Source: a virus. From it: 64,000 nt of DNA. The notes beneath the pieces were generated by a model. That model saw only the letters and a program-made list of their open reading frames with translations, did not search any database and was not told where the DNA came from. Positions 1,955-64,000 of the stretch are shown one piece after another (positions within the stretch are counted from its first letter, which is position 1; every line of letters starts with the position of its first letter). The stretch covers positions 61,910-125,909 of IMG/VR virus record IMGVR_UViG_3300020442_000009, one strand, 5' to 3'. A program made the position numbers and the translations under genes.

Positions 1955-3013
1955 ATGATTAAATCTATTTTAAAAAACAGAGAAATTCAAGATAAAGAAG
2001 CATCGTTAAGCGATTTAGCGGATAAGCTTTTAAGTAATATAGATATGTCTTTGTTTGATAAAGATTTTGTAGAGCAAGAATGGGCTAAGTCAAAGATTAA
2101 AAAAATTGCAGCAAAAATAGATATTAAAAATAATATACCTTACTTTGATGCTCCTTATGGTCATCATCATGGTAGGTATCCAGATTTAAAATATAGCATG
2201 TTGCAAACTTGTAGAAAGTATCAACTGCCTGACTGTAGTTTTTTAGTTTTTTTAAATGATGCATATGCATCTACTTTTCCTGCATTTTCGACTATAAGAA
2301 GGTTAAAGGAAGACATTTTTAATATACCTATTCCCATGGGAAATATGAGAGGAATGGGTGACGGAAATAATACACCATTAATGGGTTGGGATGAGCTTGT
2401 TCAGGGTGAATTGTTGAATACTCATAATCAATATCCTTGGGATAAGAAAATAGATATAGCTGTATTTAGGGGTCAATACATGCATCAAACTTGGAAGCTT
2501 GGGAAATACACAGAAGAGAAAGCTGAAAGTTGGACAGAAGTTAATCGTGGAGTATTGTTTAATGTAGGTTCTAGCAATAAAGATTTATTTGATATTGGTT
2601 TCAATGTTGTTGGAGCTAATCCTTTTGAGGAGGATATTCCGTCTACTGACCTTATACCTTTTGCTGAACAACAAAAATATAAATACATGATATGCATGGG
2701 GACAAATGCAAACTGGGCAGAAAGATTGAGGAATCATTTGTTTACTAATTCTGTATTAATTAAACACGAAGCAGAATGTATGGAATGGTTTTATTATTTA
2801 CTTGAGCCTTATAAACATTATATACCGTACAATTTAATGGTTACAGATCTGGCTGAAAATATTAAATGGGCAAAAGCGAATGATGAAAAATGTAAAGACA
2901 TTGTAAAAAATGCGAACCAATTTGCTCAAGAATATTTAAAAGAAGAAACTATGTTCTTATTTACTAAAATATTAATTACAAAATATAGTGAATCAGTACA
3001 AACAAGTAATTGA
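1955..3013 (+). CDS. Glycosyltransferase family 90 / CAP10-domain protein
   Basis: YPWDKKIDIAVFRG, QQKYKYMI, WAERLRNHL, EWFYYLLEPYKHYIP, ENIKWAKAND..CKDIVKNANQFA match the CAP10/GT90 pattern. Confidence 0.85.
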   Translation: MIKSILKNREIQDKEASLSDLADKLLSNIDMSLFDKDFVEQEWAKSKIKKIAAKIDIKNNIPYFDAPYGHHHGRYPDLKYSMLQTCRKYQLPDCSFLVFLNDAYASTFPAFSTIRRLKEDIFNIPIPMGNMRGMGDGNNTPLMGWDELVQGELLNTHNQYPWDKKIDIAVFRGQYMHQTWKLGKYTEEKAESWTEVNRGVLFNVGSSNKDLFDIGFNVVGANPFEEDIPSTDLIPFAEQQKYKYMICMGTNANWAERLRNHLFTNSVLIKHEAECMEWFYYLLEPYKHYIPYNLMVTDLAENIKWAKANDEKCKDIVKNANQFAQEYLKEETMFLFTKILITKYSESVQTSN

Positions 3014-4028
3014 AAATTTTTTTAAAGATTTTCAGCCTAATAGTATCTCAAGAAATGATTTAGATCAATATTATAATCACCCTAGGGAATGGAAATATTT
3101 ATCTAGAATAAAAATTATTAATAACAAACCCATCTTTCATGCAAATGAAGGTGAGAAAAGAGGTAGGTATGGTCCTGTTGTTGATTTAATTAAAAAAGTT
3201 ACTGAATTATATAATTTTAAAGATACTGAGTTCTTGGTAAACACTGGAGATGGGGTACATTCTGATGTACCTTGTTTTGGTGTTATAAGAACCAATCCAG
3301 AAAAGCCTAAAGGAATAATTCCATTTCCCGTAGGAAATTCTAACGGAATGAAATATGGTTTTGGTACACCGATAGTTAACTGGGATAAATATGTTGATGA
3401 GCATATTGTGCAACTTGGGAAAAAATATGATTTTAAATCTAAAATAAATAAAGTAGCATGGCGAGGGTCTTTTAAAATGATTACTTGGGCAGCTGGACAA
3501 TATTCAAAAAAAAGAATAGAGTCTTGGAGGGATTGCACTCGATCAAAACTTTATTTTATAACTAAAGATCGAGAGGACATTTTTGATGTTGGAATTACTG
3601 GAATATCAGATAAATACCATAGTCCTAATTCACCAGTGCCAGATGAAGCTTACGATTTAATTAAACTAAAAAATAGAATACCTTTTCCAGAAATGCAAAA
3701 ATATGTTGGTATAATGGATGTGGGTAATGTATGCGAGTGGTCAGAAAGAATAAGAAAGCAGCTATATATGAACTCTGTAATGATTATGCAAGAACAGTCT
3801 GCCCAAGAGTTTTTTACACCATTACTAAAACCTTTCATTCACTATGTCCCAACTAAGGGAGATTGGAGTGATCTTGTTCAAATAGGTGAATGGGTTGTTA
3901 ATAGCCCAGAAGAAGTAAAAAAAATTATAGAAAATGCAAATCAATTTGCTTACCAGTACTTATGCGAAAAGTCGATGTACGAATATACTAAAATGGCAAT
4001 CGAAAAATATACCACTTTGCTAAAGTAA
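2988..4028 (+). CDS. Glycosyltransferase family 90 / CAP10-domain protein (tandem paralog)
   Basis: EFLVNTGD, KINKVAWRG, WSERIRKQL, EFFTPLLKPFIHYVP, IIENANQFA. Confidence 0.85.
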   Translation: MNQYKQVIENFFKDFQPNSISRNDLDQYYNHPREWKYLSRIKIINNKPIFHANEGEKRGRYGPVVDLIKKVTELYNFKDTEFLVNTGDGVHSDVPCFGVIRTNPEKPKGIIPFPVGNSNGMKYGFGTPIVNWDKYVDEHIVQLGKKYDFKSKINKVAWRGSFKMITWAAGQYSKKRIESWRDCTRSKLYFITKDREDIFDVGITGISDKYHSPNSPVPDEAYDLIKLKNRIPFPEMQKYVGIMDVGNVCEWSERIRKQLYMNSVMIMQEQSAQEFFTPLLKPFIHYVPTKGDWSDLVQIGEWVVNSPEEVKKIIENANQFAYQYLCEKSMYEYTKMAIEKYTTLLK

Positions 4029-4976
4029 ATGGAAAAATATGTAATATTAAAAGATATTTTTTATGATGGTGGTAGATTGTTTTGTCCCAACATTAAAAAA
4101 TCAATATCTGTTCCAGTAGCATTTTCAACTACAATCGACATACACCCTCTTTCATATAAGATCGATCCAGTTAAGGTTTATGAGTCTTGTTTTTTACATA
4201 AAAGGCATGTAGTTGGCGGTTATGTTCATATTCTTATGGATGAATGTTGGGGTATGTTTTATGGAATTAAAAAACACAATTTTAATCCAGAATTTATACT
4301 AAGTTTGAACAATGATAATAGGTCATTTAATGGAGAATGGAATCTGTGGTTAAATAAGTTTTTAAAATACGATGTAAAAGAGGAGCCGGCTATTAAATCT
4401 CCAATATTAATTAAAAATGTTTTAACGGGGTGGGCGACTAATAGTATTATATTTAAAGATAATGATTTTAACTATGAATCTTTTCCAAATTCAATTAAAG
4501 ATATTCATAATATAAAGCCCAATGCAAACCCTTCTGAAGTTGTGTTTGATGTAAGATCAAAAACCAGAACTATATTAAATATAGAACAATTAAAAAAAGA
4601 ATTAAGTTTTTTAAATGTAAATTTTGTTAAATTTGATCAAATGTCAATAAAACGCCAAATTCAAACAATGAATAATGCTAAGCTATTTATATCACAGCAT
4701 GGTGCTGGATTGGCTAATTCTATATTTATGAACCAAGGTTGTAAAGTGATGGAATTAATTCAAGAGGATTATCAGAAGTATGATGCATATCAAATGATTT
4801 GCAAAAGGTTTAATCTTAATTATGTTAAACATGTTGAGCCTCAAAAAAATTCAATTAAAAAAATAACCAAACACGAAAAGAGAGATCAGGACTTGATTAT
4901 TAATACCAGACAAATAATAAATGAAATTTTGCGATCCGAAATTTCTAAACAAGATTTGGCTGATAGGTGGGGATAA
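4029..4976 (+). CDS. Glycosyltransferase family 61 (DUF563)
   Basis: RTILN, QMSIKRQIQ, ISQHGAGLANSIFM, KVMEL. Confidence 0.85.
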   Translation: MEKYVILKDIFYDGGRLFCPNIKKSISVPVAFSTTIDIHPLSYKIDPVKVYESCFLHKRHVVGGYVHILMDECWGMFYGIKKHNFNPEFILSLNNDNRSFNGEWNLWLNKFLKYDVKEEPAIKSPILIKNVLTGWATNSIIFKDNDFNYESFPNSIKDIHNIKPNANPSEVVFDVRSKTRTILNIEQLKKELSFLNVNFVKFDQMSIKRQIQTMNNAKLFISQHGAGLANSIFMNQGCKVMELIQEDYQKYDAYQMICKRFNLNYVKHVEPQKNSIKKITKHEKRDQDLIINTRQIINEILRSEISKQDLADRWG

Positions 4977-5006
4977 ATGAAATTATTAATATAAACAAAA
5001 TAAAAA

Positions 5007-5594
5007 ATGAAATTATTCGATAAAAATTCAAAATTCTTTAAAGAAAAAGGGCAAATAAGAAAACTTTCTTATGTAGCAGAGTATTGCTGTCAAAACTTTG
5101 AAGGCGACTTGATTGAAATAGGTTGCTTGAGGGGAGTTATGACATGCAAGTATGCTGAAGTGGCAAAAAAATATGGAAGAAAAGTTTGGGCGGTAGACCC
5201 TTGGTATGAAGACAACCCAAAATATTGTGCTAATTTGCAAGGATTTTATGATGAATTTATAAAAAATACAGAGGATTATAAAAATCATATAGAAATCATT
5301 AGAGCCAGCTCCTTGGATGTGGATGTAATTAAAAAAATTAAAGGTATCAATCTATGTTTCGCTTCCGTTGATGGTTTGCATACTAAGGAAGCATGCTATT
5401 CAGATATAATGTCGGTATCTCATTGTTCTGGAGTCATTGCTGTAGATGATGTAATAAACTATAAAGGAGAAATTAATTGGGAACAAAAAATGAGAGATGC
5501 TATAAGTGAAGCAATGATTAACCTTAAAGATTATTCAGTAATTTGGCCTACTGCAGAAAATAAAATAGAAAAAAATGCATACCTATATAGATGA
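5007..5594 (+). CDS. Class I SAM-dependent methyltransferase (Methyltransf_24-like)
   Basis: LIEIGCLRG, WAVDPW, VDGLH, IAVDD. Confidence 0.8.
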   Translation: MKLFDKNSKFFKEKGQIRKLSYVAEYCCQNFEGDLIEIGCLRGVMTCKYAEVAKKYGRKVWAVDPWYEDNPKYCANLQGFYDEFIKNTEDYKNHIEIIRASSLDVDVIKKIKGINLCFASVDGLHTKEACYSDIMSVSHCSGVIAVDDVINYKGEINWEQKMRDAISEAMINLKDYSVIWPTAENKIEKNAYLYR

Positions 5595-6385
5595 AATTAT
5601 TAATTAATTTTTTACCAACAGGACTTGGAGATAGGTTACAATATAACATAAAGAAAATACCTTATCTAAAATCAAAATTTAAACAGCTAGATATTTATGC
5701 AAGCTGGAAAATAAATAATCAATGTTTGGCAAATTTTGAGGACTTATTTAAAAATGTGTATAATATAAATTTTGTTGACGAGCTTTTTAGTGAAGAAGAT
5801 TTACTTAAAAATGAAGAAGAAATTTGTAGTAAATTAAATATAAAACCAATAGATTTGACACACAAAGCGTTACCAAAAGAAAATACCCACAAAGTATTAC
5901 AAATAAAAGATGAAATTTTAAATGAAATTTTAAGTTTGCAAAAAAAATATCAAATTGACAAATCAGTTATTGGTATTCATTTAAGGGTTCCTGAGAATTT
6001 TGATTTTAAAAATCCAGAAAAAATATTGGATAAAGATCCCAGTTATGCTAATTGGAAAGCTAAGCATTTGATGGATAACTTAAGTGTTTTAGAAAAAAAC
6101 TATGATTTTCTAAAAAATAAAAGAGTGCTTGTTTTTTCAGATAGCAAAGAATTAATAGAAGAAATGCTTTTAAAATATGATAATTTTTTTACAATTGATG
6201 AATGTGAAAAGCTTCCCATAGATAATAAAAAGGGAATCAGTCACGTTCGTAGAAGTAAGGAATCTGTAATTGCAGGTTTGAAAGCGGCTGGGCTACTGTC
6301 TTTGTGTAATTATAACAATAAAATCAAACTAAGGTTAACCAGCAATTTTTCAAAAATCCCAACGTGGATTAAAATTGGTAATTAA
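5591..6385 (+). CDS. Putative GT-B fucosyltransferase-like protein (NodZ/GT23/GT11-like)
   Basis: GLGDRL, VIGIHLR, VFSDS, LLSLC motif order typical of GDP-fucose-type transferases. Confidence 0.55.
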   Translation: MKLLINFLPTGLGDRLQYNIKKIPYLKSKFKQLDIYASWKINNQCLANFEDLFKNVYNINFVDELFSEEDLLKNEEEICSKLNIKPIDLTHKALPKENTHKVLQIKDEILNEILSLQKKYQIDKSVIGIHLRVPENFDFKNPEKILDKDPSYANWKAKHLMDNLSVLEKNYDFLKNKRVLVFSDSKELIEEMLLKYDNFFTIDECEKLPIDNKKGISHVRRSKESVIAGLKAAGLLSLCNYNNKIKLRLTSNFSKIPTWIKIGN

Positions 6386-7007
6386 AATTTATAATATCTC
6401 GATTATATTTTTCCAGAGTTATTGCTTTGGTTGATTCGTTATAATATTCTCTATAATTAATAGACCGATTGGATTTATTTCTGTGAGGTAGATTGAGTTT
6501 TTCGAGGCCAATTGCTTTACAAACATGGTTGAAACCTGATTGTAAATTTTCATATTTAATAATAAAATCTAAATTGCTGGCTCCATCTTTAACTTCAGTA
6601 AAGCAAGTTTGATCTGCAAGGTGACCATTCTTGATTTCTCGTTTAGGATACCAAGTTTGTGATGTTTCTCTCCAAGTTAATTGGTGATCATTTGGTTGGT
6701 CTCTAACCATATTTACAAAATTTTCAAAAGAAACTTCTTTATTTCCCCAAGGTGTAGATATTTGACCTTTGCCCGTTCCGCTTTGCCAGCTGTATTCAGA
6801 GACCAATCTATCCCAAGGATTTCTAACTACAGTAAATTTGTAATAATTGTTCCAAGTTTCTAAACCAAAACGGTCAATTAGTTGCGAAGATGTGTGATGC
6901 CACAACCCTTCATCCACTAAACCTCTTCCAGAAAAAAGAGTGTCAATACTATTACCTGCAGTTTTAGGTATGTGAATGAAAATAAATTTATGCTTATGGT
7001 TTATCAT
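6369..7007 (-). CDS. Carbohydrate sulfotransferase (Sulfotransfer_2 family)
   Basis: FIFIHIPKTAGNSI (5' PAPS site), VRNPWDRLVS (3' PAPS site), IIKYENL, LPHRNKS; likelier start MINHK at 7007. Confidence 0.9.
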   Translation of the reverse strand: MINHKHKFIFIHIPKTAGNSIDTLFSGRGLVDEGLWHHTSSQLIDRFGLETWNNYYKFTVVRNPWDRLVSEYSWQSGTGKGQISTPWGNKEVSFENFVNMVRDQPNDHQLTWRETSQTWYPKREIKNGHLADQTCFTEVKDGASNLDFIIKYENLQSGFNHVCKAIGLEKLNLPHRNKSNRSINYREYYNESTKAITLEKYNRDIINFNYQF

Positions 7008-8025
7008 TGAAAGCTGCATTTAAAATTGGCCAAACTCGATCATCAATCATGTGGCAATTTTTTGGGTGGTGACAATGCATATCTATGTAATAACCATTTT
7101 TTAATAAATTTAAATCTAAATTTTTATTAGATAGATTTCTAATGCCAGATTCAAGTTCACTCTCAGTTAGATTTAAGGTTAGAAGTTCTTTATGCTGCCT
7201 GCTATCTTCATTCCTTAATTGTTCTTCATAGGGAAATGAATGAGGGAGAATTGTTTTATCGTCAAATCCATATTTTTTTAAAAAATCTTCTTTAAGCTCT
7301 TCATGTAATCGTGCTTTTGGTTGCAATTTTCTGTATTGAGGTGCAATAAATCCAGTAAACTTATCAAAATGATTAAACCAATGATGACTTTCCATACTAG
7401 AGGCATTAAGGGATGGAATATTTTTTTTAATTAAATCAGTAGTATAGTATTCTTCATATGTCCAAACAGAGCCTCCATGTGCGGGTTGAGTATTAAGTGA
7501 TTCCCAGTCTGTTTTTGTTAATTCTTGAGCTCCCGCTAATTGAGCAAAAGAATGTTCTACTAAACTTCTTTGTAATTCTAAAATGGCAGAAAATGTTTTG
7601 CCTTTGGCTACATGATAATGTCCAGTAAGTCTGCGAGGAAGCCTGTTAGAGCATAGGTGTACATAGTAATCGTCTGGAATTTCTGATATATTTTTAATGA
7701 AATGATTTTTTTGCAAGGGCAATAAGTCTATATCTCCAACAAGCCATGTTGTTTCTGGTTCATTTTGAGTATAGTACCATTTATTAAAAATTAATTGACG
7801 CATATTGAAAGATCTTAAATCACCGAAAATAGAACTTGTTGGAGGTTCTTCGTATTTACATTCGATAATTTGACCATATTCTTCACTTAAATTATGCTTT
7901 TTTTTAGAACCGTACAACAATAAAACTGGATCAATATTTAAAAAGGTTTTCCATACCTTGGATTGCACATTCCACCAGCAGGAATATTCTTCGGAACTAC
8001 TAAAAATAACTTTATCAATTTTCAT
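6994..8025 (-). CDS. Putative GT-A glycosyltransferase-like protein
   Basis: GDIDLLPL DxD motif, YIDMH near the C-terminus; lies within the glycan island. Confidence 0.45.
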   Translation of the reverse strand: MKIDKVIFSSSEEYSCWWNVQSKVWKTFLNIDPVLLLYGSKKKHNLSEEYGQIIECKYEEPPTSSIFGDLRSFNMRQLIFNKWYYTQNEPETTWLVGDIDLLPLQKNHFIKNISEIPDDYYVHLCSNRLPRRLTGHYHVAKGKTFSAILELQRSLVEHSFAQLAGAQELTKTDWESLNTQPAHGGSVWTYEEYYTTDLIKKNIPSLNASSMESHHWFNHFDKFTGFIAPQYRKLQPKARLHEELKEDFLKKYGFDDKTILPHSFPYEEQLRNEDSRQHKELLTLNLTESELESGIRNLSNKNLDLNLLKNGYYIDMHCHHPKNCHMIDDRVWPILNAAFNDKP

Positions 8026-8464
8026 TAATTAATGATACGAAATCTGAGCAAACTGCATGAACTTTAGGGAGGTGTTTCAAAAGAAGCAAGTCATTTTTGC
8101 TTAAAAGGGGAATGACTGAGTTGTTATCACAGATATTTAAATCGTGGCACCATATATTTTTTTCATTTCTAATTGCTGTGCAAATTTCAGAACTATGATA
8201 GAAAGTTTTTAGAGGTGTGTTTGTCAGGAAAGACAATGATTGATAATCTTTACAGTGAATCCATAAATTTTCAGCTCTGTCCAGTAACCATGACTTTTCT
8301 ACTTTATATTGAGCTACATCATGACCTAAAAAAAGACTTCCATTAATTAATCTAACATCAATCTCTGCATCATAATTAATAAGAGCTTGATCTATATAAT
8401 CAGCGGTATTTTCTAACTCTTTGTTAGGTCCAGAAATGTTTCCTCTGTGAGCAATCAATCTCAT
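8015..8464 (-). CDS. Glycerophosphodiester phosphodiesterase-like (short PLC-like) protein
   Basis: IAHRGN, EN, EIDV, LGHD, WIHCK, VCSD; ATG 8464 overlaps the upstream stop (ATGA). Confidence 0.75.
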   Translation of the reverse strand: MRLIAHRGNISGPNKELENTADYIDQALINYDAEIDVRLINGSLFLGHDVAQYKVEKSWLLDRAENLWIHCKDYQSLSFLTNTPLKTFYHSSEICTAIRNEKNIWCHDLNICDNNSVIPLLSKNDLLLLKHLPKVHAVCSDFVSLINEN

Positions 8465-9270
8465 TTGAACCAATTTTGCCAAAAAATATAATCTTCAACA
8501 TCTTCAGGTATACCAAAAGATACATAAGGACATTCATATAGTTTGACTTTTAAGCCGTCTGCGATCATCTCTTGGTAAAGTTGTGTAACGTAATATTCTC
8601 CGTTTACAGTTTTATTTTGACTCATTAAGGAATTTGAATAATCTTTGAATATTTTTCCAGTTTTAAAATAGTAAGATCCATTTGAACCTCCACAGTTAGA
8701 GAGATCTGGTTTAGAAAAATACGATTTGCTTAAACCTAGTAAATCAAAATTTTGATTTAAGTCTAAAAATATGTTTTCAAAATTATATTTTTCTATAACT
8801 TCTTGACAGTTAAATTCTCCGTCATGCCTTACGAAGCAATAATATTTATTATTTCTCCAATGAGGATTGTGGAGATTATGAGATGTTAGTCCACCGTCTA
8901 CATCGCTAAATGTACTCAGCATATTGGTTATATTGAGTTTCTGGGGAGCATCAATATAGGTAATTAACAAATCTTCATCATCTAGCAAATTGTCGTGTAT
9001 ATTAGTGAGACTATAAAGCGGTCCTAATTGGTTTGATTCTATGCCGATTGCTTTGCCGTTTGAGTGTTTTTTGATTTCTTTTTCTAAATCAGTGCTTTCT
9101 AGGTCTTCGTTGCGGCATAAAAATATTGTTTCATAATCATGAAAGTCGGGAATTAAATCAATAAAAACCTCTATTGAGGTTTTTCCATTTATGTTTAACA
9201 GTGATTTGTGCGGATATCCTTTTGCAGTAAATCGTTTACTGTTTCCTGATAGGGTTATTACATGTTTCAT
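8461..9270 (-). CDS. Sugar-phosphate nucleotidyltransferase (NTP_transferase family)
   Basis: SGNSKRFT..GY..KSLL, IEK, GSYYF, NGEYYV, FGIPED. Confidence 0.8.
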   Translation of the reverse strand: MKHVITLSGNSKRFTAKGYPHKSLLNINGKTSIEVFIDLIPDFHDYETIFLCRNEDLESTDLEKEIKKHSNGKAIGIESNQLGPLYSLTNIHDNLLDDEDLLITYIDAPQKLNITNMLSTFSDVDGGLTSHNLHNPHWRNNKYYCFVRHDGEFNCQEVIEKYNFENIFLDLNQNFDLLGLSKSYFSKPDLSNCGGSNGSYYFKTGKIFKDYSNSLMSQNKTVNGEYYVTQLYQEMIADGLKVKLYECPYVSFGIPEDVEDYIFWQNWFK

Positions 9271-10007
9271 GGGTTAAAATTATTTATAAATGCTTGTACG
9301 TTTTTGTTTTTATTTGTATCTGGGTGACCTGTAAAAATATTGCAATTTCTTTTTTTGCAAAGCAAAGAGAGAATACTTTGGTCTTCTCTATGAGACCTGT
9401 GTTCTTTAAATTTTGAATAAATTTCTGTAGATCCTCCACATATATTTTGTTTGATGCAGCAATTATGTAACCACTCTTTAACAAAACTTATATTCTGTTC
9501 ATTATTTTTTAGAAAAAACCAAGTTGCTTGAACTTGTTCGCTGTCAAAATACTTTTCGTGGTTGCAGTCCATTGTTACAAATAAATCTCTTTTTGTCCAT
9601 AATCGCTCAGCTCCCCACCTAGTTTCATGAAAAAGATTGCCTTGTTTTTTTACATAATCAACCAATACAGAAATATTTGTCTTTGAAAAATCATTATGAT
9701 TACAATCATAATAAAAAATAATATCATCTGGGTCAGATTGTTGTAGTGCATCAAGAACTATAAAAGGTTTCCATAACCACATGCCTGCTCCTCTTGGCAT
9801 TTTTAGAATTTCTTTATTCCTTCCATAAAAATTATTTTTTTTTAAAGATTCTTTATTGTAAGTTATTACTTCATCTATTCCGCAGTTATTTTTTGGGATA
9901 TTGTTTTTTCTTCTTTCAGCGACATTTGCGAAATGAAGCTGTCTTGGTTGATTATCCAAGTCTTCCGGGTTCGGGTTGTCAAAGTATTGAACTAATTTTA
10001 CTTTCAT
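9267..10007 (-). CDS. Putative GT-A glycosyltransferase
   Basis: GMWLWKPFI, IFYYD, WTKRD, HREDQSILSLL family motifs. Confidence 0.6.
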   Translation of the reverse strand: MKVKLVQYFDNPNPEDLDNQPRQLHFANVAERRKNNIPKNNCGIDEVITYNKESLKKNNFYGRNKEILKMPRGAGMWLWKPFIVLDALQQSDPDDIIFYYDCNHNDFSKTNISVLVDYVKKQGNLFHETRWGAERLWTKRDLFVTMDCNHEKYFDSEQVQATWFFLKNNEQNISFVKEWLHNCCIKQNICGGSTEIYSKFKEHRSHREDQSILSLLCKKRNCNIFTGHPDTNKNKNVQAFINNFNP

Positions 10008-12801: not shown

Positions 12802-12840
12802 TATATAATACTATAATAAAGAGACTTATTTTCCAGATAA

Positions 12841-12857
12841 GTGTAATAATATTTGAT
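12841..12857 (+). promoter_or_regulatory. GTGTA upstream motif
   Basis: GTGTAATAATATTTGAT-ATG. Confidence 0.6.
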
Positions 12858-13040
12858 ATGGCGTCTATAATTTATCCAGCAGCACATTTTTTAGTAAAAA
12901 ACATTTATGCAGCAGTTGCTTTTTCTGTATCTAGACAGCTGTTTAAAGTGCTACACAGTTTGTTTAAAGCTGGTGCTGGATTATTAAAGATAGGCAAGGT
13001 TTATGTTTTAGGAACTCCTTCTTCGGAGTGTATATATTGA
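12858..13040 (+). CDS. Small amphipathic/hydrophobic protein (60 aa)
   Basis: ATG preceded by GTGTAATAATATTTGAT (GTGTA motif, 17 nt); fills the gap between two minus-strand genes. Confidence 0.55.
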   Translation: MASIIYPAAHFLVKNIYAAVAFSVSRQLFKVLHSLFKAGAGLLKIGKVYVLGTPSSECIY

Positions 13041-13041
13041 T
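13028..13041 (+). promoter_or_regulatory. GTGTA upstream motif
   Basis: GTGTATATATTGAT-ATG. Confidence 0.55.
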
Positions 13042-13241
13042 ATGGAAAACAAGGTTAAAGGGTTATGGTTATTGCTATTGAAAGTTACGTATCTCATAAC
13101 TTAAGTATATTAATAAGATCCTGTATTATAGCCAATTCTATTGTTCGGGGCATATTCAGGTTGTGTTTTACAGCTAAAGGTCCCTTTACTATAAGAGGAA
13201 GCACTCAAGCTTTGGAAAAAAACTATCCCTCTATATATTAG
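13042..13241 (+). pseudogene. Small membrane-protein-like ORF interrupted by a frame change near 13100
   Basis: GTGTA motif 14 nt before ATG 13042 gives MENKVKGLWLLLLKVTYLIT*; the -1 frame continues LSILIRSCIIANSIVRGIFRLCF...YPSIY* to 13241. Confidence 0.35.
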
Positions 13242-21043: not shown

Positions 21044-21044
21044 A

Positions 21045-24664: not shown

Positions 24665-24665
24665 T

Positions 24666-30344: not shown

Positions 30345-30350
30345 AATTAA

Positions 30351-46331: not shown

Positions 46332-46332
46332 A

Positions 46333-57228: not shown

Positions 57229-59382
57229 TTAGCTAGGTTCTACAATAAACACAGCATACGGGTTTGATCCTGTTATGAAAGAATTAACTCCTGCATATGC
57301 CGACCTTGGGTTACTTAATTTTATAAAGAAGAACTCATCATTCTCTAAAGGAGTAGTGTCTGGTGTTAAAGGTATTCCTGTAACTGTTATAGTTTTTTCA
57401 TTTTCGCCAGCAGCAAAGTAGAAGGTTCCACTACCAGACAAGTAGTCTCCATCATCATCTGTTCCGTTAGTTATGACACCAGTTACAGCACTATTTGATG
57501 CATTTTGAGTGTTCCAGTCCACAGAGAAAGGACATCCCACAAAATCAGGCTCACAATGACCAGTTTCTCGTAAGACTTTAATATTTGCAGTTCCCCCTTC
57601 AATTAAATATGTAGATGCATATTGAAATCTAACTGGAGCGTCTCCAGCACATACAGATGTAGTTGGAGTAATTGAAGGAGTTATAGAAATAGTGGGAGTA
57701 ACTGATGCTGCCGGAGTCTTGCTAGGTGTTGGAGTAACAGAAATAGTAGGTGTTGTTGTAACTGAAATCGTTGGTGTCACAGATGGACTAATTTGCCTAC
57801 TTGGCGTGGTAGTAACGGATATTGTTGGAGTTACACTGTTAGATATTGTTGGAGTAACGGTAGGAGTTGTAGTAGGAGTAGGACTTTGTGTTACAGATAT
57901 TGTTGGAGTTTGGGTAGCTGTTGGTGTTGGTGTTTGAGTGACAGAAATAGTTGGTGTTACCGATGGAGTTACTGAAGGTGTTACGGATATAGTAGGAGTA
58001 TTTGTGGGAGTAATTGATATTGTTGAAGTAGGAGTAGGAGTGGGAGTGCTTGATGGAATGGCTTTGCCCGGAGGTGGGGGCAATACAGGCTTCCACCAGC
58101 CCGGATCACCGGGATCAAACCCCCCAGTTGGAACCGGCTCAGAAGAATTACATCCAGAACCTGTACATGGGGGATCATTGGAACCCGGCGCATCTCCAGA
58201 TTCTAAACAACCTCCACTGATCAAAAAACCGTTTTCCTTAGTTACTGTAAAATCAAAATCAATTTTAGTTGTTGACATTGAATGCAAAGGAAAAGTGTTT
58301 GACCTAGATTTTAATACAGCATTATCAATTACATACCTAATTAAAGGCATTTTAGTTGGAGCATCGCAAAAACTTGAACTATGAGGGCAGTTATTATTGC
58401 ATGTAATATGAATTTCGTAAGGTTTATCTTTTTTTAATATTGTATTTAAATTTCCAATTTCTAAATCTTTATCAAGGATATCTAAAGACAGATTTCCCAT
58501 TACTGGTAAATTTAATTTTCTATCATACGGATACATAGAACCAAATCCATATAAATTTCGTCTTGATAAATCTAAATTAATATTAAAGCCTTGAGCATTC
58601 GCATTGTTACCGCTTATTTTTTGCCCGCCTATATTAGTTTCAGTTATTTTTAAATCTATATTATTAGGTAATATCGCAGGAACTGTATATTCATTTGCTG
58701 AATCATGCTTTGTAAACCCGTAATGAAAAACATCTTTCTTTTTTCCATCAAATAAATGAATCGCTGGAATATAGTTTTTATTTGCCCCACCAGCACTACT
58801 AGTACCTGAATAAGTGTCAATTTGCACATTAGATGCGGCATAAGACATATCAACTTTTACTGGTGAATTTAGTGAAGCATTTACGGAATATCTTGTTGCA
58901 AAACAATTTCCTATAGAAAGAACATTATGCCCTATGAAGTCATTGTCTTTTTGTAAAGATAAAGCTTGCTGTCCAGCATCAGACCTCAAAACCAAAAAAA
59001 AGTTTTTATCCCCATGATGCCTTGTTATAAAGCTCCTGATTGGCTCTCCACCAGAAGGCACTACGTTAAAATTTAACAAGTATTCATTAAATCCACATGT
59101 TGGTAGATATGAAAAATTAAAATTAACAGGTACTGGCTCTATGTTTACATCTATATTTGAACCGGGAGCAGGAGAATCGCTAATGACATTAATTCTTCTT
59201 GTTAATAAATCTTCGCCACCAATTTGTCTTATTTCTTCTCTGTTTATCCCAAAGTCATAACCAATAGATTGAACTTTTGTCAAATGCCTTAGAAAGTCTT
59301 TCTCCCCATCGTGATGCGGCGAAAAAGCTGGAGCGGGACCAACAAACAATGCTACATATTCAGACCTTATAAAATTCCTCAT
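57229..59382 (-). CDS. Divergent tail-tube-like paralog fused to a mucin-like tract and Calx-beta domain
   Basis: ALFVGP, LTKVQSIGYDFGINREEIRQIG align with the two upstream paralogs; C-terminal DYLSGSGTFYFAAGENEKTITV..ENDEFFFIKLSNP. Confidence 0.75.
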   Translation of the reverse strand: MRNFIRSEYVALFVGPAPAFSPHHDGEKDFLRHLTKVQSIGYDFGINREEIRQIGGEDLLTRRINVISDSPAPGSNIDVNIEPVPVNFNFSYLPTCGFNEYLLNFNVVPSGGEPIRSFITRHHGDKNFFLVLRSDAGQQALSLQKDNDFIGHNVLSIGNCFATRYSVNASLNSPVKVDMSYAASNVQIDTYSGTSSAGGANKNYIPAIHLFDGKKKDVFHYGFTKHDSANEYTVPAILPNNIDLKITETNIGGQKISGNNANAQGFNINLDLSRRNLYGFGSMYPYDRKLNLPVMGNLSLDILDKDLEIGNLNTILKKDKPYEIHITCNNNCPHSSSFCDAPTKMPLIRYVIDNAVLKSRSNTFPLHSMSTTKIDFDFTVTKENGFLISGGCLESGDAPGSNDPPCTGSGCNSSEPVPTGGFDPGDPGWWKPVLPPPPGKAIPSSTPTPTPTSTISITPTNTPTISVTPSVTPSVTPTISVTQTPTPTATQTPTISVTQSPTPTTTPTVTPTISNSVTPTISVTTTPSRQISPSVTPTISVTTTPTISVTPTPSKTPAASVTPTISITPSITPTTSVCAGDAPVRFQYASTYLIEGGTANIKVLRETGHCEPDFVGCPFSVDWNTQNASNSAVTGVITNGTDDDGDYLSGSGTFYFAAGENEKTITVTGIPLTPDTTPLENDEFFFIKLSNPRSAYAGVNSFITGSNPYAVFIVEPS

Positions 59383-59402: not shown

Positions 59403-59441
59403 TTCTACAGGAATTATTTCAAATAAAATAATTTAATTATT

Positions 59442-59837
59442 TTAAACTGAAGTTGTTGGTGTGGGTGTTGGCGTTGGCGAAACAGATATCGTAGGTGTTA
59501 CCGAAGGTGGAGGGGGAGTATTGGTTGGCGAAACAGATATCGTAGGTGTTACCGAAGGTGGAGGGGGAGTATTGGTTGAAGTTACGGATATCGTTGGGGT
59601 AACTGATATTGTAGGTGTCACCGACACACTTATTGTTGGAGTTATTGTTGGAGTTACGGATATCGTTGGAGTAACTGATATCGTTGGGGTTGGAGTTGGG
59701 GTAATCCAAGTTCTATGTTCACCAATTGCTGTGTGCCTATACATTTCATTACTGAACCCACCCCTTAAAGAAGGAGCATTATATCGCCCAGTAGTACCTT
59801 CGTTACCGTACCTTATAAAATATTCAAAATTACTCAC
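59442..59837 (-). CDS. Short ORF homologous to the C-terminus of the major tube paralog plus mucin-like tail; possibly a frameshift extension of 59839-61422
   Basis: EYFIRYGNEGTTGRYNA vs EYFAPYGKNGTTGWYSA in 61484-63199; GTG start 1 nt after the upstream TAA. Confidence 0.7.
   Translation of the reverse strand: MSNFEYFIRYGNEGTTGRYNAPSLRGGFSNEMYRHTAIGEHRTWITPTPTPTISVTPTISVTPTITPTISVSVTPTISVTPTISVTSTNTPPPPSVTPTISVSPTNTPPPPSVTPTISVSPTPTPTPTTSV
59473..59578 (-). repeat. 51-nt coding tandem duplication (TNTPPPPSVTPTISVS unit)
   Basis: Identical units starting at 59473 and 59524. Confidence 0.9.
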
Positions 59838-59838
59838 C

Positions 59839-61422
59839 TTAACTTCCGTCTAATTTACCAAACCTTGGGCTAATTGAAGGAGGCTCTTTATATTTACCAT
59901 CCTCTCCCTTAACATTAGCAAAACCAGAAAAGAAAATACCTTTATCATCTTCTTCTGGTCCAGTGATTTGGGTTACAAAAGTAAGATCAACTGATTTATT
60001 TTCTCCTATTGCCGAAGTAAATCCTTCAGATTCAAGATAAGCACCTTTAAAATCAATAGTAATTCCATCTGGCTGATTGTTAGGTGTGCATCTTATGCAC
60101 ATAGGATTTTGCATCCTTATTTTTAAATCAACCATATTTCCACAATAAATTTCATCAGCTAAATTGCCTGCTTTTATATCTGACACTAAAGCATTAACAG
60201 TTAATGTTGCGGTTACTGGGTATTCAATTTCTTTTGCAAAAGCATAAGTGTTACCCATTCTATTAAGAGATTCTCTTGCTAATGGAGCACTGAGAGTAAA
60301 ACTTTGTATGTGAGCACTACCCCTGTCATCTGACCCTTCAGAATAATCTCTTGTATCCCCTGATATTTGTTTTGATATTAAAGCTCTCCCATTTAAATCT
60401 AAATGTATGTCTCCAGCCTTTAGGCATGGAACACCAAAACCTGATTCAGAAGGTGGCAAAACAAAACATGTATCACAAATCTGAGTGCCGTCCTGAGGGT
60501 TGATTGCAGGAATTTCCCTAAAATCAGTTCCACCCACATCACTTTTTATATTTAAACCTTCCATTGTTACAGAAACTGTTGGCATTCCGCCAACACTAGC
60601 TTCAATAGAATAGTCCGTTATGAATGCATTTCCTATTGAGATAACAGATTTCCTGTCTTCGGCAACCATAGTATCTCCCTTAACAGCATCTCTACCTTCA
60701 GGAACAGTTAATATAAACATATTGTGGCCAAATTCATTTTGCTCTTTGACCATGATGCCAGATAAATGCTCTTTTTGTCCGTGAGTTACAAAGCCTAATA
60801 GTCTTTCGTTTTCACCATCCGTAATATAATAAGAAAAATCTAAATTAACAACTGGAGATTCATTTACAATCGCATCTATTCTACCAAGTTGACCAAATTG
60901 ATTTACATCTGTCCTGTTTACAGTAAAGCTATAATTTGCAGATTGTATTCTTTTAAGTTGCTCTATGGCTGTTCCCCAGCTTCCAGAAGTCGAAGTTAGG
61001 TCTTCGTTTTGAATGTATTTTAACCCACCACCAGAAACACCGCTCTTCATTCCAACGTCACTAAGAACTGCATGCTTGGCTAAAGTTACTTCATTTCCTG
61101 CACTATCTACACCCGTGCATTTATACATTCTATTTTTGTAATCAATAACTTCTGTTTTTCCGGGATTATCTCCAGTTCCAACACAGGCATCAAATACAAA
61201 AGTTTGTCCACCGTCTCCGCTTCCTGAAATCCAACACTCTGATCTATACTGCTCTCGCCCTAAGGGTGCATTTGGATAATTTGCTTTATCAATTAATCCT
61301 GCATTTGATGCAGGCATATAATATATATGCTTTCCCGTAGCATCTGGAGAAATGAACAACGCTTCACTTTGATAGATTACTCTATTTCTGTTTGAAAGTT
61401 TAGTTGTTCTTTTTTTACTCAT
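59839..61422 (-). CDS. Putative tail tube protein, paralog 2
   Basis: Colinear with 61484-63199 (identical RNRVIYQSEALFISPDATGKHIYYMP); beta-rich alternating pattern. Confidence 0.65.
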   Translation of the reverse strand: MSKKRTTKLSNRNRVIYQSEALFISPDATGKHIYYMPASNAGLIDKANYPNAPLGREQYRSECWISGSGDGGQTFVFDACVGTGDNPGKTEVIDYKNRMYKCTGVDSAGNEVTLAKHAVLSDVGMKSGVSGGGLKYIQNEDLTSTSGSWGTAIEQLKRIQSANYSFTVNRTDVNQFGQLGRIDAIVNESPVVNLDFSYYITDGENERLLGFVTHGQKEHLSGIMVKEQNEFGHNMFILTVPEGRDAVKGDTMVAEDRKSVISIGNAFITDYSIEASVGGMPTVSVTMEGLNIKSDVGGTDFREIPAINPQDGTQICDTCFVLPPSESGFGVPCLKAGDIHLDLNGRALISKQISGDTRDYSEGSDDRGSAHIQSFTLSAPLARESLNRMGNTYAFAKEIEYPVTATLTVNALVSDIKAGNLADEIYCGNMVDLKIRMQNPMCIRCTPNNQPDGITIDFKGAYLESEGFTSAIGENKSVDLTFVTQITGPEEDDKGIFFSGFANVKGEDGKYKEPPSISPRFGKLDGS

Positions 61423-61432
61423 TTTTAGATAA

Positions 61433-61462
61433 GCTACTCAAACCGAATTTAGTTTGAGTAGC
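61433..61462. terminator. Perfect 11-bp hairpin between tube paralogs (weak terminator/attenuator or mRNA-stabilising stem)
   Basis: GCTACTCAAAC-8 nt-GTTTGAGTAGC; followed only by TTATCT on the coding (minus) strand. Confidence 0.7.
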
Positions 61463-61483
61463 AATTTTTATTATTAAATGTTA

Positions 61484-63199
61484 TTAGGAATAAGCTCCTG
61501 AAGGAACTGAAACGGAAGGATTATTATCCCAAGATCCTCTGGCCTTGTATTTGTCCGACCCGAATCCAGTTGCACTGTACCAGCCAGTTGTTCCGTTCTT
61601 TCCATAAGGAGCAAAATATTCTCCAGTAGCTCTTTTTGTCTTATTCCAGAAACCTGTGAATGCAGCCTTATCATAATTGACGATACTGGGTGACATTTTT
61701 GTCAGTCCATCTGCTCCTGAAACATTTTCAAAACCAGATAAGAAAACACCCACTCCTGCTTGCTCAGGACCACCAATTTGGGTACTGAATGTCAAGTCAA
61801 CAGTTTTATTATCTCCAATTGCAGAACTGAAACTTTCTGAGTCTAGAACAGCTTTTTTGAAATCAATTAAAATTCCATCAGCATTATCATTTGGATCACA
61901 AACAACACAAGCTGGATTCTGAATCCTGATTTGCATGTCATATTGACCTCCGCAAATTAAGTTTACAAGATTTCCAGATTTAAGGTCTGCTACAAGAGCG
62001 TTAACACTCAAGGTTGCTGTAACAGGGAAATCTACTTCTTTTGCAAAAGAATATGTATTTCCAAGTCTTTGAAGTGCAGCCCTACCAAGAGGAGTACTAA
62101 GAGTGAAACTCTGAATGTGAGCACTACCAGCATCTTCAGAACCATAACCGGGAGTTCTTCCAGAAATTTGTTTTGATATGAGAGCTGAATCAGCTAAATC
62201 AATGGTAATATCTCCGGGCTTAAGAACACTAACACCATATCCAGTGTCAGCAGGAGGAAGAATAAAGCATTTTTCACAGATTTGAGTTCCGTCTTGAGGG
62301 TCAATAGCTGGAATTTGTTTAAACTCTGTTCCAATATCACTCTTAATGTTCATGCCTTCAACAGTAACAGAAGCTGTTGGGAAAGCTCCCACACTTGCTT
62401 CCATCGAGTAATCGGTTACATAACCATTTCCTAGTGAAATAGATGTTTTATTAGTTTCATCTACAAGCTGATCACCTTTAATAGCATCTCTACCTTCAGG
62501 TACAGTTAAAATAAAGTAATTGTTTCCGTACTCATTTTGCTCACGAGTCATTAATCCAGAGAGATTTTGGAATTTACCGTCACTTACAAAACCTAAAAGT
62601 CTTTCATTTTCACCGTCAGTTAAATAGTAGGAAAAGTCTAAACTTACTGTAGGAGCTTCGAGAACAACTGCGTCAATTCTTGAAAGTTGACCAAATTGAT
62701 TGATATCTTGCCTATTAATAGTAAAACTGTAGTTGGCATTTTGAACTCTTTTTAATTGCTCAATAGCGGAACCCCACTCTCCGTCATAATCAACACCGGA
62801 AGTTCTTGTAGTTCCTCTTACCCCATTGGAAAGCTTAGCAAGTGCTGATTTACTACCAGAAATACCACTTACCATTCCATCGTCGGCAAGAACTGCATGG
62901 CGGTTTACTGCGTTACCAGTTCCTAGTCCGTCACCAGTACAATTGTACATTTTATATTTGTAATCAAAAGAAGTCGTAACTCCTGTACCTGCACAAGCAT
63001 CAAAAATTATGTCAGCTGCTCCTGTGGTCAGACCAGTAATGTAGCAGTCAGACTGATACTCAGCTGAACTTCTTGTTCCTGTAACAAGCCCTGCATTAAG
63101 CGGCGGCATGTAGTAAATGTGCTTTCCTGTAGCGTCTGGTGAAATGAACAACGCCTCACTTTGGTAGATAACTCTGTTTCTTGGTGGTAATTTAGCCAT
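61484..63199 (-). CDS. Putative major tail tube protein, paralog 1
   Basis: Acidic G/S/T-rich beta protein with two internally similar halves (QNANYSFTINRQDINQFG / QSFTLSTPLGRAALQRLG); own GTGTA motif and downstream hairpin. Confidence 0.65.
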   Translation of the reverse strand: MAKLPPRNRVIYQSEALFISPDATGKHIYYMPPLNAGLVTGTRSSAEYQSDCYITGLTTGAADIIFDACAGTGVTTSFDYKYKMYNCTGDGLGTGNAVNRHAVLADDGMVSGISGSKSALAKLSNGVRGTTRTSGVDYDGEWGSAIEQLKRVQNANYSFTINRQDINQFGQLSRIDAVVLEAPTVSLDFSYYLTDGENERLLGFVSDGKFQNLSGLMTREQNEYGNNYFILTVPEGRDAIKGDQLVDETNKTSISLGNGYVTDYSMEASVGAFPTASVTVEGMNIKSDIGTEFKQIPAIDPQDGTQICEKCFILPPADTGYGVSVLKPGDITIDLADSALISKQISGRTPGYGSEDAGSAHIQSFTLSTPLGRAALQRLGNTYSFAKEVDFPVTATLSVNALVADLKSGNLVNLICGGQYDMQIRIQNPACVVCDPNDNADGILIDFKKAVLDSESFSSAIGDNKTVDLTFSTQIGGPEQAGVGVFLSGFENVSGADGLTKMSPSIVNYDKAAFTGFWNKTKRATGEYFAPYGKNGTTGWYSATGFGSDKYKARGSWDNNPSVSVPSGAYS

Positions 63200-63232
63200 G
63201 ATATAAAAAATATGTTATAATGTTAAATACAC
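63200..63232 (-). promoter_or_regulatory. GTGTA upstream motif with longer leader (major tube paralog)
   Basis: GTGTATTTAACATTATAACATATTTTTTATATC-ATG. Confidence 0.55.
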
Positions 63233-63272
63233 GCTTTAATTCGTGATGTGAAAAAAGTTTTTATTTTTATTC

Positions 63273-64000
63273 CTAGAACAGCCATCTTACTGTAAACTCT
63301 AGGGTACTTCCTTTTGTTAAGTTTAGCTCGCTATATGAGAAGCATCCATCCTGAGCTACTTGAACTTTAATTTTTGGAGGATTGGACGAATCGTATGCAC
63401 ACTTGGCACATGCTGCATCACTACTGTCAACCGCATGGAAAGTTGACAATCCATTATCAAGAGTATCTTCTGTAAATGTGTCAGGTATAAGATTGTCCGA
63501 GCTATTACCGGGGAAGTTTAATGAAGATTCGCAAAAATCTTCCGCACCATCCACACCATCCATATTCGATGCTTCAACGATTTCAAAACCTGTTGCTTGA
63601 GTTCCTTGTCTTGTCCAACCTCCAATACCAGAGAATGATGCTCCATTAAGAGTTACTCCACTATATATAATACTTGTACCAAAGTTACTTCCTCCTGCTG
63701 GAATAGCCCATGTAAATGTTTCAGTAAAGTCTGATTGGCTTGCTGCAGTGGAAGTGCTCGGCGTTGGACTTGGAGTTACCGAAAGCGAAACACTTGGACT
63801 CACCGAAATGCTTGGAGTAACACTAAGAGAAGTACTTGGAGTTACTGAAATGGTTGGTGTTGCTGTTGGGCTGTTCGGTGGAGTATTAGATACGGAAATA
63901 CTTGGAGTAACCGAAATTGTTGAACTTGGAGTTACTGAAATGGTTGGTGTTGCTGTTGGGCTGTTCGGTGGAGTATTAGATACGGAAATACTTGGAGTAA
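63273..64000 (-). CDS. 3' part of a protein with mucin-like T/S/P repeats and a small C-terminal domain; starts beyond the window
   Basis: The frame of ORF 63273-63803 stays open to 64000 (TPSISVSNTPPNSPTATPTISV...). Confidence 0.85.
   Translation of the reverse strand, partial: TPSISVSNTPPNSPTATPTISVTPSSTISVTPSISVSNTPPNSPTATPTISVTPSTSLSVTPSISVSPSVSLSVTPSPTPSTSTAASQSDFTETFTWAIPAGGSNFGTSIIYSGVTLNGASFSGIGGWTRQGTQATGFEIVEASNMDGVDGAEDFCESSLNFPGNSSDNLIPDTFTEDTLDNGLSTFHAVDSSDAACAKCAYDSSNPPKIKVQVAQDGCFSYSELNLTKGSTLEFTVRWLF
63834..64000 (-). repeat. 90-nt-period coding duplication
   Basis: Sequence from 63834 recurs identically from 63924 to the window end. Confidence 0.9.

Follow-up and report, generated by a model that had tools for sequence, protein, structure and literature searches.

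A candidate phage-encoded virion glycosylation system, with putative GT60 initiators and Thr/Pro-rich candidate tail proteins, in a marine siphovirus-like phage

The 64,000-nucleotide stretch analysed here (the window; IMG/VR virus record IMGVR_UViG_3300020442_000009, positions 61,910 to 125,909) encodes two islands of glycan enzymes together with six proteins bearing long Thr/Ser/Pro-rich tracts, an observation made in an earlier sequence-only reading and confirmed here. That reading proposed that a cytoplasmic pathway coats tail proteins with an anionic glycan, and it pointed to GT90- and GT61-family glycosyltransferases (GTs). We find this interpretation partly supported: it is plausible, and it is now better supported chiefly through a pair of GT60-family genes lying outside the window. 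On balance, we lean towards a phage that glycosylates its own tract-bearing virion proteins through a cytoplasmic pathway, started by GT60 and extended by the island enzymes. The window makes up the right half of one viral contig of 125,909 bp (G000:C1:61910-125909; CheckV completeness 93%), and its close relatives in IMG/VR, G001 (146,036 bp, 100% complete) and G002 (139,273 bp, 98%), have a gene order in common with contig G000.

The two GT60 genes lie left of the window (G000:C1:55258-57782) and match PF11397 with 207.8 and 159 bits, against a cut-off of 21. The matches are near full length (profile positions ~96-350 of 352), and the same holds in G001 and G002. We take PF11397 to correspond to CAZy family GT60, the polypeptide alpha-GlcNAc transferases. 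DxH is the metal-binding motif of retaining GT-A enzymes, and a DSH motif of this type is invariant in 8/8 GT60 copies from five genomes and in a 14-row alignment. An HtrL/YibB-like gene is found at G000:C1:51995-53698; PDB sequence searches with GT60 and the HtrL-like protein returned nothing significant. According to PMC8724618 and PMC3769586, the GT60 enzymes of Trypanosoma cruzi and Dictyostelium initiate mucin-type O-glycosylation at Thr, and the family includes the soluble cytosolic Skp1 alpha-GlcNAc transferase. Judged from the genes, the best-supported enzyme-substrate link would join GT60, not GT90 or GT61, to the Thr/Pro tracts.

Across phages, the tracts go with this protein O-glycosylation initiator. 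With a tract defined as 40-aa windows containing at least 60% Ser, Thr or Pro (S/T/P), tract-bearing open reading frames (ORFs) were present in all five near-complete GT60-bearing genomes, namely 8/149 in G000, 6/143 in G001, 4/174 in G002, 6/174 in G003 and 9/105 in G004. The last two share just 13 and 23 ORFs with the G000 lineage, GT60 and the HtrL-like gene included; G003 has myovirus-type baseplate, portal and fibre genes, and the tracts of G003 and G004 reach 1250 residues, with SPPP repeats. In G004 (loci L099 and L104), four ORFs carry extensin-like SPPP(A/V) repeats beside Thr/Pro tracts. A profile scan of IMG/VR yielded at least 610 GT60-encoding stretches, from which 79 new loci were kept for the test, while 73 loci centred on ribonucleotide reductase (RNR) and lacking GT60, partly from related phages, served as the control. 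A tract ORF occurred in 65/79 GT60-centred loci against 7/73 control loci (Fisher p = 7e-21), with 138 tract ORFs in 1389 kb of the former and 9 in 1348 kb of the latter. After dereplication, 44/56 GT60 clusters at 90% identity and 14/18 at 70% identity were majority tract-positive. Between GT60 and the nearest tract ORF, the gap was 83 bp in the median and below 500 bp in 46 of the 65 loci. Although the loci are not phylogenetically independent, the effect is clear in both direction and size.

A sister lineage was compared, which has a homologous tail module (7/15 hidden Markov models (HMMs) match G001) as well as replication genes. No tract ORF was found in its members G006 (73 kb) and G007 (44 kb) or in eight of its loci. 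GT60 and HtrL are absent from the syntenic site, where DnaB and RecA adjoin; the PF11397 profile search of this lineage had no positive-control match, and the absence of GT60 there rests on the other comparisons. Just four sugar-related Pfam matches were found among the ORFs scanned. Relatives that keep tracts while lacking the GT islands had been named as a finding that would speak against virion glycosylation; this GT60-less lineage has no tracts.

In the window, six ORFs carry tracts of 96-257 residues that classify as mucin-like (PTS) domains; the other two tract ORFs of the contig lie at G000:C1:20146-21954. At the proteome S/T/P frequency of 0.171, the chance per window is ~1e-9 and ~6e-5 such windows are expected. 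Tandem Repeats Finder (TRF) returned 16 rows of tandem repeats within the tracts, which are partly built of 18-96-bp repeats. All six tracts listed in the sequence-only reading are therefore present in their ORFs, far beyond chance and partly tandem-repeated. The block that holds them, in window coordinates, is as follows.

40956-43487, minus strand: 843-aa protein at the end of the large-protein block; 25% identical to a 704-aa protein of G001; no Pfam or PHROG family
43503-46352, minus strand: 949-aa protein with a C-terminal Thr/Pro tract (722-933); orthologs in G001 (916 aa) and G002 (805 aa) also end in tracts
46333-53604, minus strand: 2423-aa protein with a tract at 282-393; no homolog in G001 or G002 outside the tract
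53604-55571, minus strand: 655-aa lineage-restricted protein, tract-less; 29 relatives only, none with a Pfam domain; its profile matches nothing in PDB
55611-57221, minus strand: 536-aa protein with an N-domain, a 257-aa Thr/Pro tract (104-360) and a Calx-beta domain (PF03160, 31 bits against 27); TRF periods of 24/48/96 at 56290-56733
57229-59382, minus strand: 717-aa protein with a tail-tube-like domain (1-390), a tract (423-584) and a Calx-beta-like end (weak PF03160; the PDB search with this C-terminal domain reached only E 0.15, to a Na/Ca-exchanger calcium-binding domain)
59442-59837, minus strand: 131-aa ORF, a 27-aa N-motif followed by tract alone (36-131); begins in the +1 frame, 1 nt beyond where the 527-aa gene stops
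59839-61422, minus strand: 527-aa tail-tube-like paralog; 44% identical to the 370-aa family of the sister phages (HMM E 1.3e-112)
61484-63199, minus strand: 571-aa tail-tube-like paralog; ESM Atlas neighbours with Phage_tube_2/Phi812 tube labels (a minority of members)
63273-64000, minus strand: repeat-rich tract protein of at least 241 aa, truncated where the contig stops, with a tract at 1-101 of the visible part; G001 counterpart 533 aa, tract 83-367

The 533-aa counterpart in G001 sits between connector-like genes and the tube gene, a position at which the sister loci have no counterpart, and G001 has a further C-terminal tract on the protein following its J-like fibre. At the position of the 2423-aa ORF, G001 has two proteins of ~730 aa. 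We rejected the 2423-aa ORF as a tape measure: in G001 the tape measure is found past the stretch that corresponds to the window end, and no homolog of the ORF lies there. A search for related loci with the 655-aa protein found none; one of its relatives sits in an NCBI 'Flavobacteriia' metagenome-assembled genome (MAG). For the N-terminal part of the 949-aa protein, ESM Atlas gave uninformative scores of 0.80 at most. The 27-residue N-motif of the 131-aa ORF matches the C-terminal motif of the single tube orthologs in G001 and G002, and the same motif forms the N-termini of the two tract proteins at G000:C1:20146-21954; a search with a strict pattern did not find it outside contig G000. No indel was seen at the junction of the 527-aa and 131-aa genes in contigs from at least three independent marine metagenome studies, and the junction could reflect programmed +1 recoding or a coupled GTG restart. 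Two short marine metatranscriptome contigs match window positions 61390-61803, in the region of the 571-aa gene, exactly. We rejected transcription as a conclusion from these RNA-library contigs, as only that segment is covered and carried-over DNA is possible.

Whether the tract proteins belong to the virion turns on the tail-tube-like family. The 571-, 527- and 717-aa proteins and a fourth paralog form one family of ~370 aa. The fourth (G000:C1:37685-39013) adjoins a ClpB-like disaggregase, an arrangement kept in G001 and G002. In the sister lineage, the family comes last in an operon after three small connector-like genes, and this operon stands back to back with chaperone-like genes and the tape measure. 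The family scores 0.96-0.98 to viral clusters in ESM Atlas, where 12-42% of members carry tail-tube Pfams, and PF09393 ('Phage tail tube protein') appears below threshold in 5/15 family members (best E 0.0076). A tail-tube identity is, on these similarities, a good lead, not a result, and at least one tract protein, that of 717 aa, is a probable tail-tube paralog. A tract-bearing tube-like paralog is present in 3/3 genomes of the G000-G002 lineage, and only one of the 150 best representatives of the tube-like family carries a tract, though 51 are at least 500 aa long. The proposed structural role is plausible for the 717-aa protein and no more than putative for the 949-, 2423-, 655- and 843-aa proteins.

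The glycan enzymes were assessed with curated Pfam cut-offs in a scan of 57 window ORFs, among which 31 were considered here: 13 in island 1 (1949-14236), 15 in island 2 (19266-31190) and those at 33225, 37098 and 39011.

1949-3013, plus strand: GT90-family glycosyltransferase, 354 aa (PF05686, 78.7 bits against 24; maximum 19-residue Kyte-Doolittle score (KD19) 1.05, soluble)
2988-4028, plus strand: GT90-family glycosyltransferase, 346 aa (PF05686, 45.1 bits)
4029-4976, plus strand: GT61-family glycosyltransferase, 315 aa (PF04577, 57 bits against 27)
5007-5594, plus strand: Methyltransf_24 methyltransferase (PF13578, 33 bits against 26.3)
5591-6385, plus strand: NodZ-like (fucosyltransferase-like) ORF, sub-threshold (PF05830, 25.8 bits against 28.3)
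6369-7019, minus strand: Sulfotransfer_2 sulfotransferase, 216 aa (PF03567, 67.5 bits against 22)
6994-10007, minus strand: four ORFs (343, 155, 269 and 246 aa) without a firm family (phrog_34507, function unknown; the 269-aa ORF weakly NTP_transf_3-like, PF12804, 20.2 bits against 27)
10004-11059, minus strand: GT61-family glycosyltransferase, 351 aa (PF04577, 108.2 bits), with orthologs in G001 and G002
11056-12801, minus strand: Nucleotid_trans (GT77-type) and DUF7796 protein, 581 aa (PF03407, 31.1 bits; PF25072, 41.6 bits)
13238-14236, minus strand: conserved ORF, 332 aa, 49% identical in G001 and G002, no Pfam or PHROG match
19266-20246, plus strand: SDR sugar-nucleotide epimerase/reductase (PF01370, 122 bits; best NCBIfam GDP-L-fucose synthase, far under cut-off)
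20243-22396, minus strand: GT2 (266 aa; PF00535, 74.5 bits), an ORF without family (232 aa) and a weakly GT2-like ORF (218 aa; PF00535, 20.9 bits against 23.3)
22381-23654, minus strand: NeuB-family synthase (243 aa, short; PF03102, 143 bits) and CMP-sugar cytidylyltransferase (181 aa; PF02348, 86.8 bits), both far under NCBIfam equivalog cut-offs
23651-25241, minus strand: 337-aa ORF without family and Methyltransf_11 methyltransferase (PF08241, 34 bits)
25234-26316, minus strand: non-hydrolysing UDP-GlcNAc 2-epimerase, WecB (PF02350, 334.5 bits; TIGR00236, 311 bits against 210)
26309-27256, minus strand: SDR epimerase/dehydratase/RmlD-like (PF01370, 111.9 bits; PF04321, 74 bits)
27256-28822, minus strand: GT2 (209 aa; PF00535, 94.2 bits) and a 321-aa ORF without family, both 78-87% identical in relative L013
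28819-29727, minus strand: NDP-sugar dehydrogenase (UGD-like, 302 aa, short; PF00984, 82.6 bits; PF03721, 69.9 bits; TIGR03026, 166 against 189.8)
29724-31190, minus strand: GT2 (206 aa; PF00535, 29.4 bits) and CAP59-like (GT69-type) transferase (279 aa; PF11735, 38.8 bits against 28.8)
33225-34310, plus strand: GT4-like transferase, core gene (phrog_2170, E 1.1e-20; PF00534, 23.1 bits against 26.4; 52% identical in G006)
37098-39023, plus strand: GT4-like transferase with a C-terminal extension, 641 aa, core gene (PF00534, 33.5 bits; phrog_2170; 44% identical in G006)
39011-40159, plus strand: 382-aa ORF, GT label not confirmed (no Pfam, PHROG or NCBIfam match)

Glycan-related Pfam matches were found in 23 of the 31 ORFs, and 19 of them reach the curated cut-off. 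The transferases above it are GT90 (two), GT61 (two), Nucleotid_trans/DUF7796 of GT77 type, GT2 (three), CAP59 of GT69 type and one Glycos_transf_1; the others are Sulfotransfer_2, Methyltransf_24, Methyltransf_11, NeuB, CTP_transf_3, Epimerase_2, UDPG_MGDP_dh and two SDR epimerases. Four matches fall below it (NodZ-like at 5591, NTP_transf_3 at 8464, GT2 at 21743 and Glycos_transf_1 at 33225), and eight ORFs (6997, 8018, 9270, 13241, 21048, 23654, 27860 and 39011) have no Pfam family. Of the roughly 30 glycan enzymes counted earlier, 23 have such a match; the supposed GT at 39011, among the eight without one, is not confirmed. Its GT90, GT61, GT69-like, GT77-like, sulfotransferase and two methyltransferase labels stand above cut-off. 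For its fucosyltransferase-like gene and nucleotidyltransferase, a family resemblance is seen under the cut-off, and its 'GME-like' epimerase can be named no more closely than as an SDR epimerase/reductase. WecB alone passes an NCBIfam equivalog cut-off, and the NeuB-like, cytidylyltransferase and dehydrogenase ORFs, all of them short, are family-level assignments. The GT90, GT61, GT77-type and Sulfotransfer_2 families of island 1 match no bacterial NCBIfam model. The genes at 33225 and 37098 are GT4-like as claimed, but both are also kept in the tract-less sister lineage, which does not support a tie to the tracts.

Together, the glycan genes of G000 occupy ~35 kb, or 28% of the 126-kb contig; a second sulfotransferase and an RmlD-like reductase are in its left half. 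G001 has 37 Pfam-supported glycan ORFs among 126 scanned, including nine Sulfotransfer_2, an APS-kinase-like gene, a Fringe-like gene and GT25/34/32-type enzymes. In G002, there are ~38 among 138 scanned, with eight Sulfotransfer_2, one Sulfotransfer_4 and GT8, GT10, GT31, GT92 and GT-D types. The three genomes have only a small set in common, with GT60, the HtrL-like gene and a CmcI-like methyltransferase among its members; apart from this set, each strain has islands of its own. Between the two islands of the window there is an Hsp20 gene (14800-15258).

A cytoplasmic site of action was proposed from the absence of membrane and export functions, and this absence was borne out beyond the window. 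No membrane segment was found in 38 glycan ORFs, whose highest KD19 of 1.41 stays below the threshold of 1.6, and the tract proteins have no signal-peptide-like N-termini. Pfam searches for Wzx, Wzy, ABC exporter and phosphoglycosyl transferase families found none on the whole contig, in G001 (126 ORFs) or in G002 (138 ORFs). The lipid-carrier and export genes that, elsewhere on the contig, had been named as contrary evidence were thus looked for and not found. The initiating transferase family Bac_transf (PF02397) was not found in G000-G004; the positive control matched in 11/14 genomes. In G000-G002, neither the thymidylate-synthase-family hydroxymethylase PF00303 (control matched in 10/14 genomes) nor the prolyl 4-hydroxylase family PF13640, a 2OG-Fe(II) oxygenase that Hyp-linked glycosylation of the Skp1 or extensin type would need (control matched in 3 genomes), was found, and general Pfam scans of their ORFs were likewise without a prolyl hydroxylase match. 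A PAP2-family phosphatase ORF at window 35045-35698, not listed in the sequence-only reading, has the catalytic motifs. We rejected it as an undecaprenyl-pyrophosphate phosphatase, since it lacks a hydrophobic segment and is missing from both G001 and G002.

The contig is ~93% of a roughly 140-kb marine siphovirus-like phage. It has a GC content of 0.33, lacks tRNA genes and encodes, by Pfam, a DnaE-type polymerase, DnaB, primase, RecA, RNR, dUTPase and SSB, as well as a ClpB-like ATPase, sigma factors and an HNH endonuclease. Identity to G001 and G002 is 77-80% for the RNR large subunit, 71-76% for the polymerase, 79-86% for RecA and 67-69% for GT60. Past the region matching the window end, G001 has a 2984-aa tape measure and lambda-like M/L/K/J tail-tip genes, and the lineage is therefore of a long-tailed siphovirus type. 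The source is a phage, as seen from the replication genes on the contig and the tail-tip genes of the complete relative. Against cultured phages, tblastn found no match for the 571-aa protein and only distant ones (at most 33% identity) for DNA polymerase III alpha. None of the head genes of the sister lineage has a homolog in G000-G002 (8/15 HMMs silent), though the tail module is common, which suggests that the head module of the G000-G002 lineage was replaced by unfamiliar genes. The terminase-position gene of G006 (L086:4248-7385, 1046 aa) contains an intein with a LAGLIDADG domain. For the RNR small subunit (window 564-1577), 80 IMG/VR contigs, the longest of 213 kb, show 92-97% identity. 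Left of the window, at G000:C1:33910-37208, lies a DUF1501 and PSCyt2/PSD1 gene pair that is absent from G001 and G002 and typical of Planctomycetota/Verrucomicrobiota, the closest (57%) being in an Opitutia MAG. Its DUF1501 gene is nearest to Opitutia/Verrucomicrobiales MAGs (44-57%), whose loci have 53-65% GC against 33% in the phage, and the pair is fully adapted to the phage GC.

The pathway that we favour would run in the cytoplasm of the infected cell. Phage enzymes would supply the nucleotide-sugar donors there. WecB would make UDP-ManNAc, the NDP-sugar dehydrogenase a uronic acid and the SDR enzymes deoxyhexoses, while the NeuB-like enzyme and the cytidylyltransferase would together make a CMP-ulosonic acid. 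On the long Thr/Pro tracts, the first GlcNAc would be added to Thr/Ser by the two soluble GT60 enzymes, soluble GT-A/GT-B island enzymes (GT2, GT61, GT90, GT77-type and CAP59-type) would then lengthen the chains, and the sulfo- and methyltransferases would decorate them. The tracts would be carried by the tail-tube paralog, by its neighbours with Calx-beta-like ends and by proteins beside the tube gene; because they sit on the tube paralog and its neighbours, the finished tail may bear glycosylated bottle-brush stalks. What we infer here is the action of GT60 on the tracts, a contribution of the island enzymes to that same glycan, a place for the tract proteins in the virion, and the anionic charge and the role of the glycan. 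In a bolder and decidedly tentative form, this marine lineage would build a virion glycocalyx of dense, sulfated, uronic/ulosonic O-glycans on stalks of 100-270 residues along its very long tail. The coat would be started by GT60 and made by 28-38 cytoplasmic phage gene products, with islands swapped like O-antigen loci as the coat that hosts, grazers and matrices 'see', and with the N-motif docking extra stalks on the tube.

Several points weigh against virion glycosylation. The GT90, GT61, sulfotransferase and NeuB-like enzymes may act on acceptors other than protein. GT60 lies 35-60 kb from the tail tracts in G000, whereas it is adjacent to tracts in most other phages. The NeuB-like and dehydrogenase ORFs are short relative to the bacterial enzymes. 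Terminase, portal and major capsid genes were not recognised in G000-G002 by Pfam or PHROGs, and the label of a structural block would rest on position and on the tail genes of G001. As for the tube family, PF18906 had no match in G000-G002, two PDB profile searches gave nothing meaningful, and an hhalign comparison with the tube protein of phage K, whose gene follows that of the sheath, showed no similarity. Thr/Pro tracts also occur at low frequency without GT60, in 7/73 viral loci and in 4/32 bacterial control loci, and the co-occurrence counts are not phylogenetically independent, the control loci coming partly from related phages. The last two points would suit an account in which the tracts are unglycosylated linkers that hold Calx-beta/Ig-like adhesion domains off the tail, the pairing with GT60 reflecting shared ancestry or habitat, and tracts do end in folded domains. 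We consider this account improbable: the association holds after dereplication at 70% identity and spans phages with almost no other common genes, the median gap between GT60 and tract in other phages is very short, the 131-aa ORF is almost tract alone with no distal domain, and XacN1 virions stain for glycoprotein (PMC5852040).

Alternatively, the islands may remodel the host envelope, an exopolysaccharide or a soluble glycan via host lipid carriers and exporters, with protein glycosylation confined to the GT60/HtrL core or absent. Close relatives have very different islands, a pattern also seen in the surface-polysaccharide loci of bacteria, which typically hold GT2, WecB, UGD, NeuB-type and RmlD-type genes. 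In the sister lineage, a small sugar-nucleotide cassette and the GT4-like genes are retained without tracts, and the host could provide the absent initiating transferase and flippase. However, neither these two functions nor a polymerase or ABC exporter is encoded by G000 or by the 100% and 98% complete relatives, the transferases are all soluble, four families of island 1 lie outside the bacterial NCBIfam models, and selection on a surface glycan of the virion would be just as likely to give hypervariable islands. We regard this explanation as rather unlikely. That the transferases glycosylate phage DNA, giving hypermodified bases that evade restriction, seems to us very improbable. DNA glycosylation is known in phages (PMC12619734), genes for dCMP deaminase, dUTPase, dNMP kinase, a C5 methylase and a protein resembling nucleoside deoxyribosyltransferase are on the contig, and the conserved GT4-like genes adjoin SSB and sigma-factor genes. 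Yet the three genomes lack a hydroxymethylase of the thymidylate-synthase family, ~28-38 glycan genes with sulfotransferases and ulosonic-acid genes far exceed known DNA modification pathways, and the tracts would be left unexplained.

A common ocean phage lineage thus devotes about 28% of its genome to glycan genes, from families otherwise typical of eukaryotic protein glycosylation. If virion glycosylation is correct, phage particles can bear complex, strain-specific and possibly sulfated glycan coats, which would affect how they adsorb to marine gels and to the capsules of hosts, how they are grazed, decay and are recognised by immune systems, and the reading of viral 'auxiliary' sugar genes in metagenomes would change. 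The principle would be general, as GT60 homologs occur in the many IMG/VR stretches found here, usually beside tract genes. Neither GT60/tract systems nor glycan islands rich in sulfotransferases were described for phages in the literature that we searched. To our knowledge, mycobacteriophages are the only phages for which virion glycosylation by phage enzymes has been demonstrated, with a hint of it in XacN1; the novelty here lies in the scale, in the enzyme families and in a siphovirus from the sea. In mycobacteriophages, capsid and tail-tube subunits reportedly carry glycans on their C-terminal parts, added by phage enzymes (Freeman et al. 2023, Cell Host Microbe). The phage-encoded transferases are a common feature, and the C-terminal placement would be another, the tract here lying on a probable tail-tube paralog. 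Unlike the few genes there, each genome here has 28-38 glycan genes, a putative eukaryote-type GT60 initiator, tracts of 100-270 aa and sulfotransferases, in a marine setting with an uncultured host.

Siphovirus tail tubes may display Ig-like/FN3 domains, some by +1 frameshift (SPP1 gp17.1*). The present phage resembles these in its probable tube paralog with a distal beta-sandwich-like domain and in the +1-frame tract ORF directly after a tube-like gene; it differs in the long Thr/Pro stalk interposed in the 717-aa protein, and recoding is here only a candidate. Closer in chemistry are the mucin-type and Skp1 O-glycosylation of protists, with the same Pfam family and Thr-rich acceptors. In PMC8724618 and PMC3769586, the assay peptide of T. 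cruzi GT60 is a Thr run flanked by Pro, and on Skp1 the soluble cytosolic GT60 is followed by GT2- and GT77-type enzymes. These two families are also present in G000, whereas, unlike in the protist systems, no prolyl hydroxylase is found in G000-G002 and the context is that of a bacterial virus.

GT60 homologs with 33-38% identity occur in four cultured jumbo phages, XacN1, Xoo-sp13, Stenotrophomonas CM1 and RAS14. In XacN1, the homolog has 37% identity and a tract lies in a giant ORF beside a GT cluster. Its virion proteins were Schiff-stained, which the authors attribute to phage GTs (PMC5852040, legend of Suppl. Fig. S4). XacN1-type phages differ from G000 in being myoviruses of 300-385 kb that have only two annotated GTs and lack large islands. 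Chlorovirus Vp54 and mimivirus fibrils are glycosylated with virus-encoded donors and soluble transferases. A passage in PMC5852040 likewise states for PBCV-1 that the virus supplies glycosylation independently of the host secretory machinery. In contrast to G000, these giant viruses have eukaryotic hosts, N-linked or fibril glycans and an unrelated virion architecture.

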